A stretch of 32,000 bases of DNA from Megasphaera elsdenii DSM 20460. Its GTDB lineage: Bacteria; Bacillota; Negativicutes; Veillonellales; Megasphaeraceae. The stretch is taken from NCBI RefSeq assembly GCF_003010495.1, contig NZ_CP027570.1, positions 1,320,001 through 1,352,000 of the forward strand, written 5' to 3'. The position numbers were made by a program, and so were the translations under genes. This document shows positions 13,440 to 14,868 of this stretch, piece by piece. Below the pieces are notes generated by a model. That model had not been told where the DNA came from. It saw only the letters and a list, made by a program, of their open reading frames with translations, and did no database searches. Each line of letters begins with the position of its first letter. The first letter of the stretch is position 1.

Positions 13440-14075
13440 ATGTTAGACGATTATCTGAAAGAACTGCAAAAAATAACCCTCCTCGAACCCGACGAAGAAC
13501 GGGCCTTGTGGCAGGCATATAAGGACAATGGGGATATGATGGCCCGGAGCCGCCTCATCGAACAGTACCAGCCGCTGGTCTTCAAGGAAACCATGCGCTG
13601 GCACATCCATCGCGACATCTTGTCCGACGCCCTGCAGGAAGGGACGCTGGGCCTCATGGAAGCCGTAGAACGTTATGACTACCGCCGCGGCGTGGCCTTT
13701 CCCTTATTTGCCGTCCATCGTATCCGCGGGGCCATCCTCGATTATTTGAAACGCGAAGGTGCCGTCAGCGCCGTATCCCTCGACGAACCCGATGAACGAG
13801 GCGTGACCCTGCAGGATACGCTCTGCGACGAGGAACAGGACCCGGCAGAGGCGACGAGCCGCCAGCTGCTGCTGGAAAAGGTCGGCCATGTCCTGAAACG
13901 GCTGCCCGAAAAGGAGCAGGCCGTCGTCGAAGGCGTATACCTGAACGATGTCGAACAGAAGCACCTGGCCAAGAGCCTGGACATCAGCCTGCCTTATGTC
14001 TATCGCCTGCAGAAACGGGGCATCCGCCGCGTCCGCGGCATGCTCAGCCGGTTCATCCATGAGAGCCGCCACTAA
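13440..14075 (+). CDS. Sigma-70 family RNA polymerase sigma factor, FliA/SigD/WhiG-like (group 3)
   Basis: RBS AAAAGGTGGTGAAAGG. Region 2 ([42 protein letters not shown]) closely parallels FliA/SigD (AVERYD..AF.TYAV.RIRGA). Region 4 has an HTH ([45 protein letters not shown]). Confidence 0.85.
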   Translation: [211 protein letters not shown]

Positions 14076-14179
14076 AAAAATTTTACATTTTCTTAAAATT
14101 GGCCCGTTTTTAGGTGAAAAGAATCGGAAAATGCTGTAAAATATAGATTATGGCATGTTTTTGCGCCCTTTTACGGGTA

Positions 14180-14205
14180 TAAACTCATGCGTCCTTTCCC
14201 GATAC
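14180..14205 (+). promoter_or_regulatory. Sigma-28/SigD-type promoter candidate
   Basis: TAAA (14180-14183), 14 nt (ctcatgcgtccttt), CCCGATAC (14198-14205). The textbook consensus is TAAA-N15-GCCGATA(A/T). It lies about 40 nt upstream of ATG 14244. I found no equivalent intergenic match elsewhere in the window. Confidence 0.4.
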
Positions 14206-14243
14206 TATAGACGTATTCGTTTAGGCAGAAAGGAGAGGGCTGT

Positions 14244-14852
14244 ATGAAACATTCCCAGCGCGATACGGTTCATCGGGTCCGGGCCGTCCGGTCCTGGCTG
14301 GAAAAGGCGGAAGCTTCGTTTGATAAAGAGTCCGATATCAAAGGCGAACTCAATCTGATGCTGGCCGAAGCAGAAATGAAGAATCTGCGCAAACACCATC
14401 CCGTCAGCAAAGGCTGGCTGCGGACCGGGGCCGTCATTACAGCTCTTTTCCTGGCCCTGGGCGGCTGGTATGGATTCCATCTGTATGGACAGGGGGCATC
14501 GCCACCTGTCATGGGAACTGTCACCCCTGCGCCGACAGCCGGGAAGGCAGCTGGCCAGGGCTCGGCAGCTGAGGCCGCGCCTGCAGCAGAGCCAGTCCCG
14601 GCCGAGGAGGTACCGCCTCCTGCCCCGGCCATACCGGCACCGCCAGCGGAGCCAGCAGCCCCTGCCACCCCGGATAGGGACGAACCTATGGTACAGCCCG
14701 CCGCGACGGCTGTCACCGCACCAGCGACGCCAGTGCAGTCAGCGCCGGCTCCGGTGCGGACAGAAACGAAGGCAGTCTTATCGGACCGCCAGGTACAAGC
14801 TACGGTACAAGAAGCACGTCATACTTTGCGCGGTACGAGTACGACAAAATAG
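14244..14852 (+). CDS. Single-pass membrane protein with a Pro/Ala-rich extracytoplasmic tail; putative anti-sigma factor (function inferred from context only)
   Basis: RBS AAAGGAGAGGG. About 60-aa helical N-domain, one TM helix (GAVITALFLALGGWYGFHLY), then a low-complexity P/A-rich region. It lies directly downstream of the sigma gene and 16 nt upstream of bamA. Confidence 0.7.
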   Translation: MKHSQRDTVHRVRAVRSWLEKAEASFDKESDIKGELNLMLAEAEMKNLRKHHPVSKGWLRTGAVITALFLALGGWYGFHLYGQGASPPVMGTVTPAPTAGKAAGQGSAAEAAPAAEPVPAEEVPPPAPAIPAPPAEPAAPATPDRDEPMVQPAATAVTAPATPVQSAPAPVRTETKAVLSDRQVQATVQEARHTLRGTSTTK

Positions 14853-14868
14853 ATAATGGAGGATTTTT

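Follow-up and report, generated by a model that had tools for sequence, protein, structure and literature searches.

What is a gene for an alternative sigma factor doing between tamB and bamA, in the middle of a cluster of outer-membrane biogenesis genes? We examined this question in a 32,000-nucleotide stretch of the genome of Megasphaera elsdenii DSM 20460 (contig NZ_CP027570.1, positions 1,320,001 to 1,352,000), which we call the window and in whose numbering the positions below are given. The sigma factor is encoded on the plus strand, like all large open reading frames (ORFs) of the window, by an ATG-initiated ORF at 13440-14075 (211 aa). It is followed by a 168-nt spacer (14076-14243), by a second ATG-initiated ORF at 14244-14852 for a 202-aa protein with one transmembrane (TM) helix and, after a gap of 16 nt, by bamA, whose ATG lies at 14869. 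An initial annotation, made from the letters of this stretch, had given these ORFs and spacings correctly and was also right that flagellar and chemotaxis genes are absent, since no such domain occurs in any large ORF of the window. It had proposed that a FliA/SigD-type sigma factor and a single-pass anti-sigma factor form an envelope-sensing circuit that drives the bamA operon from a sigma-28-type promoter. Our analysis revises the family and the promoter type of that proposal, and the locus is best explained as a conserved module of three genes, with regulatory and sensing roles, that lies within the Negativicutes cluster for outer-membrane biogenesis.

Relatives of the sigma factor were collected by scanning one genome per species with a 12-sequence profile of the sigma family, which yielded 558 relatives among the species-representative genomes. 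We compared the loci of the best 80 of these 558, with neighbours assigned by tblastn using the window proteins. They come from Megasphaera, Anaeroglobus, Colibacter, Propionispora, Pelosinus, Sporomusa, Dendrosporobacter, Selenomonas, Mitsuokella and uncultured Negativicutes. In all 80 related loci the sigma gene and the TM-protein gene stand as a pair next to bamA, and the order mlaD-tolC-tamB-sigma-TM protein-bamA-426-aa protein-skp-lpxD was found in every fetched locus long enough to show it, across several Negativicutes families. The sigma gene usually starts about 15-50 nt 3' of tamB, and the gap between it and the TM-protein gene is long in all Negativicutes loci examined, at 120-430 nt. 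The order is the same in a distant G+C-rich lineage (locus L083, 5101-9377; also L084), where TamB, sigma, a SonB-like 207-aa protein, BamA and a SonA-like 418-aa protein (names explained below) are followed by LpxC, FabZ and LpxA. The sigma factor of this lineage has 183 aa, its gene lies 44 nt from that of the 207-aa protein, and the latter has both of the conserved ends of the TM-protein family. The module may reach beyond Negativicutes. A member of a related cluster bears the label 'Nitrososphaerota archaeon', presumably through a binning error.

Part of this neighbourhood has recently been described in Acetonema longum, where the gene upstream of bamA was named sonB and its product, with a predicted TM helix, was called a 'putative OM lipoprotein'; the sonA gene downstream of bamA encodes 426 aa with three POTRA domains and a ten-stranded barrel (PMC13018214). 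Synteny of sonB-bamA-sonA-skp1 is reported for 36 Negativicutes (PMC13018214, Nat Commun, Feb 2026), and the window genes have the same positions, architectures and taxonomic distribution. Judged by position and architecture, the TM protein of the window is a SonB homologue. On the same grounds the window's 426-aa exported protein (17100-18380, plus strand) is a SonA homologue with three POTRA-like domains and a small barrel; both identifications rest on synteny, length and fold. The AlphaFold2 model of this protein (predicted local distance difference test score, pLDDT, 89.3) has three beta-alpha-alpha-beta-beta units and an all-beta C-terminus, and its top Foldseek matches are TamA and BamA (E about 1e-11); its sequence gave no Pfam match to Omp85 or POTRA. 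Earlier papers had counted a single Omp85 homologue in Negativicutes. The initial annotation, aware of no description of such a circuit, needs amending here: the flanking genes were published in February 2026 as SonB and SonA, while the word 'sigma' occurs nowhere in the text of PMC13018214 and the sigma gene just upstream of sonB goes unmentioned there.

Are the three genes also inherited together? We took gene counts between tamB and bamA, and between bamA and skp, from the accession numbering in the supplementary table of Antunes et al. 2016, which mostly follows gene order, and not from sequences. By this measure two genes lie between tamB and bamA and one between bamA and skp in Phascolarctobacterium, Succinispira, Acetonema, Anaeroglobus, Anaeromusa, Centipeda, Megasphaera, Mitsuokella sp. 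oral taxon 131, Pelosinus, Sporomusa, 'V. ratti', Dialister invisus and D. succinatiphilus. Selenomonas and Thermosinus likewise have two genes between tamB and bamA, with a bamA-skp gap that is not uniformly one. Both places are empty in Acidaminococcus fermentans, A. intestini, Dialister micraerophilus, two Megamonas, Veillonella atypica, V. dispar, V. parvula and Halanaerobium praevalens; H. hydrogeniformans has no gene between tamB and bamA, and its skp accession is out of sequence. Mitsuokella multacida shows three genes between tamB and bamA, and the numbering of Zymophilus is ambiguous. A single gene between tamB and bamA occurs in no genome with sequential GenBank ids. These counts agree with published loci, namely Vpar_0526 (TamB), Vpar_0527 (BamA) and Vpar_0528 (Skp) of V. 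parvula (PMC5491611), and with the reported absence of SonA and SonB from V. parvula and A. fermentans (PMC13018214). Sigma, SonB and SonA thus appear, from accession numbering and those two papers, to be kept or lost as one unit. As the initial annotation implied, the module is independent of flagella: its presence bears no relation to the flagellar gene columns of the Antunes 2016 table, and it is found in taxa without flgI, flgH or flgA entries there. The suggestion to use V. parvula as the native test organism falls, since the module is absent from it; the species is instead a possible clean background for heterologous tests of the module.

Does the sigma factor belong to the FliA/SigD family? 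We searched 1.84 billion representative proteins and found a distinct, sharply bounded sigma family of 200-220 aa that aligns end to end with the window protein (42 clusters at 50% identity with E<=1e-30). The window protein itself is 92-95% identical to proteins of M. intestinihominis and M. elsdenii. Next below these clusters come sigma factors of 250-300 aa that match only in regions 2 and 4, and the ten nearest longer matches are all of FliA/WhiG type, nine of them over the TIGR02479 cutoff. The FliA-like region 2 that had been pointed out is borne out by this search, in which FliA/WhiG proteins are the nearest relatives outside the sigma's own family. The segment RIRGAxxDxL of regions 2.2-2.4 is common to the short family and FliA/WhiG; the ORF does contain the region-2 string quoted in the annotation, whose string for E. 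coli FliA is likewise accurate.

Membership of the FliA/SigD family as such did not hold up. The window protein scores 83.2 bits against TIGR02479, whose cutoff is 189.6, and only residues 40-111 (region 2) align well. It reaches no NCBIfam subfamily cutoff and passes only the generic superfamily model TIGR02937 (89.7 vs 42.9), while the models for cyanobacterial-type SigF, WhiG, SigB/F/G, FliA_WhiG and RpoH give about 78-91 bits, mainly over region 2. Pfam detects region 2 (aa 39-107, 13554-13760; PF04542, 54.7 bits), which holds the segment common to FliA/WhiG, region 4 (aa 151-199, 13890-14036; PF04545, 34.2 bits) and a weak match to region 1.2 (19.3 bits), with no region 3, and the domain layout is sigma-2 plus sigma-4 only. 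In a BLASTP alignment with E. coli K-12 FliA the two proteins are 27% identical (E 5e-17), a large gap falling at FliA region 3, and an alignment with six FliA/WhiG proteins shows that about 55-60 residues of region 3 are missing from the short family. The missing part includes DWxPRSxR, a segment that in sigma-28 contacts the upstream part of the -10 element. The best match among solved structures is the 278-aa protein of 6pfv/6pfj, listed merely as 'RNA polymerase sigma factor', which we take to be WhiG in complex with RsiG. By these alignments the sigma factor is a two-domain derivative or sister group of FliA/WhiG (group 3), outside FliA/WhiG as defined, and descent from or closest kinship with this sigma-28 group, with loss of region 3, is the best explanation of its sequence. 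Because its nearest relatives are FliA/WhiG proteins and a weak region 1.2 match is present, its descent is not of the extracytoplasmic function (ECF) type.

Some homologues are labelled 'sporulation-specific sigma factor' by JGI, and the protein might accordingly be a sporulation or germination sigma factor, active only when the spore outer membrane is rebuilt. SigK/SigE models do align over its full length at about 70 bits, and in Acetonema the genes sonB, bamA and sonA are co-expressed and induced at germination, with a shared promoter predicted upstream of sonB (PMC13018214). Every sporulation sigma model, however, stays far under its cutoff, the module occurs in non-sporulating Megasphaera, Anaeroglobus, Dialister, Phascolarctobacterium and Selenomonas, and the presence of SonA and SonB shows no correlation with sporulation (PMC13018214). 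We judge a sporulation role very improbable and discarded it, together with a SigI assignment, on scores far under the cutoffs and a distribution independent of sporulation. A 221-aa relative of the sigma factor (locus L081, 7001-7666; also L082), about 35% identical and extended at its N-terminus, has a phage-like neighbourhood. Around it are a pentapeptide-repeat protein, a protein of the polynucleotide kinase/phosphatase/RNA-ligase type and numerous small ORFs; no SonB-like neighbour of this relative was found.

We then asked of the sigma-sonB spacer whether it holds a promoter that such a sigma factor could read. The motif TAAA-N14-CCCGATAC reported at 14180-14205 is present. TAAA-N14-16-CCGATA occurs once in the 32-kb window, with 0.05 occurrences expected by chance, and 5 of 100 shuffles contain a match. 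Its conservation fails: among 61 distinct orthologous sites, 3 carry TAAA-N13-17-CCGATA and 11 have the C of CGA. The exact motif is limited to the window and four close relatives and is already lost in M. elsdenii and M. intestinihominis, and the cognate promoter type TAAA-N15-GCCGATAA is likewise not kept at the orthologous sites. We therefore rejected the exact sigma-28 motif as the conserved promoter on its 3/61 sites.

The proposed location fared better, for a conserved promoter-like block occupies exactly that place. Seeded refinement of a position weight matrix (PWM) gave a 38-nt block (14175-14212, plus strand; GGGTATAAACTCATGCGTCCTTTCCCGATACTATAGAC in the window, class-wide consensus nnGnnnAnAATnnnnCnTCTTnnnnnGAnTnTATAnnn) that encloses the earlier motif, aligns without gaps in most loci and across clades, and ends 20-31 nt before the sonB start codon. 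Its consensus can be written G-N3-A-N-AAT-N15-GA-N-T-N-TATA. Over the 61 distinct sites the best-conserved positions of the block are A28 and T32 (60 of 61 each), G27 (59), A33 (57) and T21 (52), followed by G3, A9 and A35 (50 each), T30 (46), T34 (45), A10 (44) and A7 (43). Only the A-rich part and the GA are kept from the sigma-28-like motif. The PWM has one strong match in the window, scoring 28.4, with the next at 11.3. A housekeeping sigma-70 promoter is an unlikely reading of the block, as no -35 hexamer lies 16-18 nt from its -10-like part and the would-be -7 T is present in 16 of 61 sites. The most economical reading of these sequences is that the block is a promoter for an alternative sigma factor, for which the adjacent, co-inherited sigma would be the obvious candidate.

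Should the sigma factor nevertheless be taken literally as a sigma-28/SigD-type protein that reads a TAAA-N15-GCCGATA(A/T) promoter at 14180-14205? Region 2.4 of the sigma is FliA/WhiG-like, the window has no second instance of the motif, and its A-rich upstream part is kept together with GA(T) at roughly sigma-28-like spacing; FliA/WhiG/SigD promoters and the block have in common that the -35-like element is A-rich and that the -10-like element contains GA(T). Those promoters, however, have a CGA core, whereas the block lacks CGA and has a conserved T-N-TATA in addition. With the conservation counts above, the loss of region 3 and DWxPRSxR and a score below the TIGR02479 cutoff, this literal version is largely refuted, and little weight, if any, can be left to it.

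The spacer could also act as RNA, with the block part of a 5' leader that masks the Shine-Dalgarno (SD) sequence and start codon of sonB and is transcribed from a housekeeping promoter further upstream. The window spacer (14070-14250) folds better than shuffled sequences (z = -3.95), and CAUGCGUCCUUUCC pairs with the AUG and the SD region of the sonB-like gene (AAGGAGAGGG, 14230-14239). A pyrimidine run C-TCTT, complementary in composition to the purine-rich SD, is conserved, and a pair of sigma-70-like hexamers lies upstream (GTGAAA-17-TAAAAT, 9 of 12 matches, 14114-14142, plus strand). Across the loci this picture dissolves: RNAalifold returned no consensus pairs in 34 sequences, the share of cells in which the helix pairs is 55.3%, against 53.9% for shuffled sequences, of which 65 in 500 attain the observed value, slid registers pair about equally well, and Rfam gives no match. 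The most conserved columns (GA, T and TATA) lie outside the helix. With no consensus structure, no covariation and pairing that is not kept in other genera, we rejected the RNA leader and consider it improbable.

What kind of protein is the SonB-like neighbour? The architecture described in the initial annotation agrees with the AlphaFold2 model, which has a helix at residues 4-51 (14253-14396), a TM helix at 56-82 (14409-14489), a disordered stretch at 91-176 (14514-14771) and a helix at 181-195 (14784-14828), all encoded on the plus strand. The family comprises 242 clusters, every one labelled 'hypothetical', with no Pfam domain. Its conserved N-terminal stretch reads hxRSAxxWLxxAExSFxxxxdxRGELnLxLAqAEl, in which W18, L19, A22, E23, G34, E35, L36, L38, A41, A43 and E44 are invariant or nearly so. 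The linker is rich in Pro, Ala and Glu and varies in sequence and length, and the C-terminal helix lies within a conserved motif, LSxxemQklvraAGkSLRG (in a second rendering, vLSxxxmQxlVxxAgxSLRG). Conservation is strongest in the cytoplasmic helix, which calls for a cytoplasmic partner.

The topology differs from that published for A. longum. None of the 75 SonB orthologues examined has a lipobox, 35 of the 75 lack cysteine altogether, and their lone hydrophobic segment begins at residues 56-76. The sequence ahead of it is K/R-rich, with 4.67 K+R in the 15 residues that precede the TM helix vs 1.21 after it. On these grounds the sequences indicate a bitopic inner-membrane protein with the N-terminus inside and the C-terminus outside, not built like a lipoprotein; the A. 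longum protein was published as an outer-membrane lipoprotein, whereas the orthologues here have no lipobox and about 60 cytoplasmic residues.

The anti-sigma assignment of this protein found no counterpart in domain searches. Its sequence resembles neither FlgM nor any anti-sigma domain known so far, zf-HC2, RskA and RsgI_N domains being absent by Pfam and NCBIfam. A short helical anti-sigma domain resembling class II may escape detection by sequence.

With SonB so defined, the sigma factor may be genuine and SonB no anti-sigma factor at all but a TonB/TolA-like trans-envelope accessory of BamA, SonA or TamB, with the block an ordinary or otherwise regulated promoter and the adjacency due to a shared function in the envelope. 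The lack of likeness to anti-sigma domains fits such a role, as do the conserved periplasmic C-terminal helix on its Pro-rich linker, the co-loss of SonB with SonA and the treatment of SonB as an envelope protein of the BamA operon in PMC13018214. The long sigma-sonB spacer, with a terminator-like hairpin in some clades, also favours it. It is at odds with the position of the best-conserved part of SonB, which is cytoplasmic, and with the fact that sigma and SonB are never found apart, either in the fetched loci or in accession gaps, which are 0 or 2 and never 1 where ids are sequential; in the distant G+C-rich lineage just 44 nt separate the two genes. An accessory role of this kind is the main rival reading, though it seems to us rather unlikely.

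We prefer a circuit in which the sigma factor is held by the cytoplasmic helix of SonB, is released upon an envelope signal, initiates at the block and is restrained again through sonB, and we put the probability of this full circuit at roughly 45%. The sigma gene would be transcribed at the end of the mla-tolC-tamB unit, and the cytoplasmic helix of SonB, of about 55 residues, would sequester its product at the membrane. The disordered linker would cross the periplasm with the conserved helix at its end, and this tail would sense disturbed outer-membrane protein assembly or envelope geometry, perhaps by docking on SonA or on the POTRA domains of BamA. Freed sigma would then initiate at the G-N3-A-N-AAT-N15-GA-N-T-N-TATA block and raise sonB-bamA-sonA-skp-lpxD, with more SonB providing negative feedback. 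Family relations, domain loss, synteny, apparent co-occurrence and co-loss, topology and block conservation come directly from the comparisons; that SonB binds sigma, that sigma recognises the block, and what kind of signal acts are inferences that go beyond them.

Several observations weigh against this circuit. The block has no further copy in the window or in the 14.6-kb loci (14.6-32 kb scanned per genome), and a regulon beyond the sonB-bamA operon is therefore not supported. The sigma-70-like pair at 14114-14142 lies in AT-rich DNA upstream of the block and is kept only in the M. elsdenii group, and in Sporomusaceae a perfect TATAAT stands just 3' of the block, next to the SD; either may serve as another promoter. 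The 120-430-nt gap between sigma and sonB is unlike that of the usual co-transcribed sigma/anti-sigma pair. In Selenomonadaceae (L044, L062, L065, L067 and L071) a terminator-like hairpin, AAAACCGCGATAATCGCGGTTTTT, lies 3' of the sigma gene and before the GA-N-TATA element, which suggests separate transcription units, one closing with the sigma gene and the next opening with sonB. As to the proteins, no anti-sigma domain was detected in SonB by Pfam, NCBIfam, a PDB profile search or PADLOC, and hhalign gives a probability of 0.3% for its relation to E. coli FlgM. Co-immunoprecipitation of BamA in Acetonema recovered zero partner proteins (PMC13018214).

How does the proposed circuit compare with known systems? 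An alternative sigma factor with a single-pass anti-sigma partner that governs envelope genes is a kind of system already known. By sequence FliA/WhiG/SigD comes nearest, through the shared pattern of regions 2.2-2.4; the partner here is not FlgM-like, and the presence of the pair is unrelated to flagella. Envelope-stress ECF pairs include E. coli sigma-E/RseA, B. subtilis SigW/RsiW and Cupriavidus CnrH/CnrY, the last with a short class II anti-sigma domain. The layout here is like theirs in that a two-domain sigma factor lies beside a single-pass, N-in protein whose cytoplasmic domain is short and helical and which also has a periplasmic part, near envelope biogenesis genes, and the same logic of sequestration, release and feedback would be expected. 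In contrast to those pairs, the window sigma is not ECF-descended, its partner has no detectable anti-sigma domain, and the long spacer carries a promoter-like block of its own. The sigma gene has no obvious promoter and in most genomes begins about 18 nt beyond tamB; the proposed target would be the BAM/Skp/LpxD machinery itself. SigI/RsgI of Bacillus and Clostridium, in which a single-pass anti-sigma factor carries an extracytoplasmic part after a Pro/Thr-rich linker and serves cell-envelope control, share the layout of an alternative sigma with a single-pass partner and linker. However, no SigI model is among the top NCBIfam matches of the window sigma, and the promoter type differs.

The remaining features of the window frame the module. 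From the start of the window the genes run MurA-like, mreB, SpoIVB-like peptidase, mlaE, mlaF, mlaD, tolC and tamB; sigma, the TM protein, bamA, the 426-aa gene, three skp genes, lpxD and the lipid A acyltransferase gene follow, and unrelated genes lie 3' of the last of these, up to ftsK as the window's final gene. Outer-membrane gene clusters of this kind have been described for Negativicutes (PMC5007114, PMC5491611). The first gene of the mla-tolC-tamB unit encodes a 676-aa protein with a SpoIVB peptidase S55 domain (2156-4186) in a non-sporulating genus, and its V. parvula counterpart (Vpar_0521) has been flagged as unexplained (PMC5491611).

Between tamB and the sigma gene, the spacer at 13342-13439 (plus strand) holds a G+C-rich near-palindromic repeat, with GGGGCGCCCAC twice at 13369-13392, a CACGTG centre, and then TATATGTGTGAAT; the corresponding spacer of M. 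intestinihominis (locus L001, 6845-6960) has two such hairpin units. The near-palindrome could be a repetitive extragenic palindromic (REP)-like insertion, a weak terminator or an operator, and it might give the sigma gene transcriptional control of its own in this group.

The bamA gene (14869-17081, plus strand), which encodes POTRA domains and an Omp85 barrel, is broken into two reading frames, 14869-16929 and 16731-17081, as the result of a 1-nt deletion near 16622/16623, where the window has ACGGG-AC and three close relatives have ACGGGCAC. Since BamA is usually considered essential and a G-run precedes the site, a pseudogene is less likely than an error of assembly or sequencing. Downstream, the genes are those that had been listed, namely an exported protein of unknown kind (the SonA-like protein above), three OmpH/Skp chaperone genes (18353-20327) and lpxD with the lipid A acyltransferase gene (20337-22304), all on the plus strand. 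The statement that this run lacks terminators also stands, as no convincing plus-strand terminator was found in 14869-22304. The sole good hairpin with a T-run in that interval, at 21458-21477, is within the acyltransferase coding region, 75 nt into it, where a TM segment is encoded. A strong 16-bp hairpin (22285-22319) at the end of the acyltransferase gene probably ends the long unit that begins with bamA.

Measured against open-access papers and bioRxiv, three things appear to be new: the region-3-less, sigma-28-like family, its fixed place in the order tamB-sigma-sonB-bamA, and the proposal that SonB is the membrane partner of the sigma factor and not a lipoprotein. The same literature yielded no regulator of outer-membrane biogenesis in diderm Firmicutes, sigma-E, RseA and DegS not having been searched for. 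Diderm Firmicutes lack the proteobacterial BamB-E and Lol systems (PMC13018214). For that study our results mean that SonB is not lipoprotein-like and that a sigma gene directly upstream had not been considered. A broader proposal, tentative and at longer odds than the circuit itself, is that a regulator of outer-membrane biogenesis arose in diderm Firmicutes independently of proteobacterial sigma-E. It would consist of a region-3-less sigma-28 derivative tethered by SonB, whose C-terminal helix would report on the SonA/BamA machine, and Veillonella, Acidaminococcus and Megamonas would each have lost the unit of sensor, sigma and SonA as a whole. If this is true, a group-3 (sigma-28-like) sigma factor has been reduced to the two-domain layout typical of ECF sigma factors. 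The locus offers a testable candidate regulator, a sigma factor beside bamA across most of the class with apparent co-loss of SonB and SonA, whose gene lies upstream of the region's one conserved promoter-like block and whose membrane partner looks like a trans-envelope sensor.

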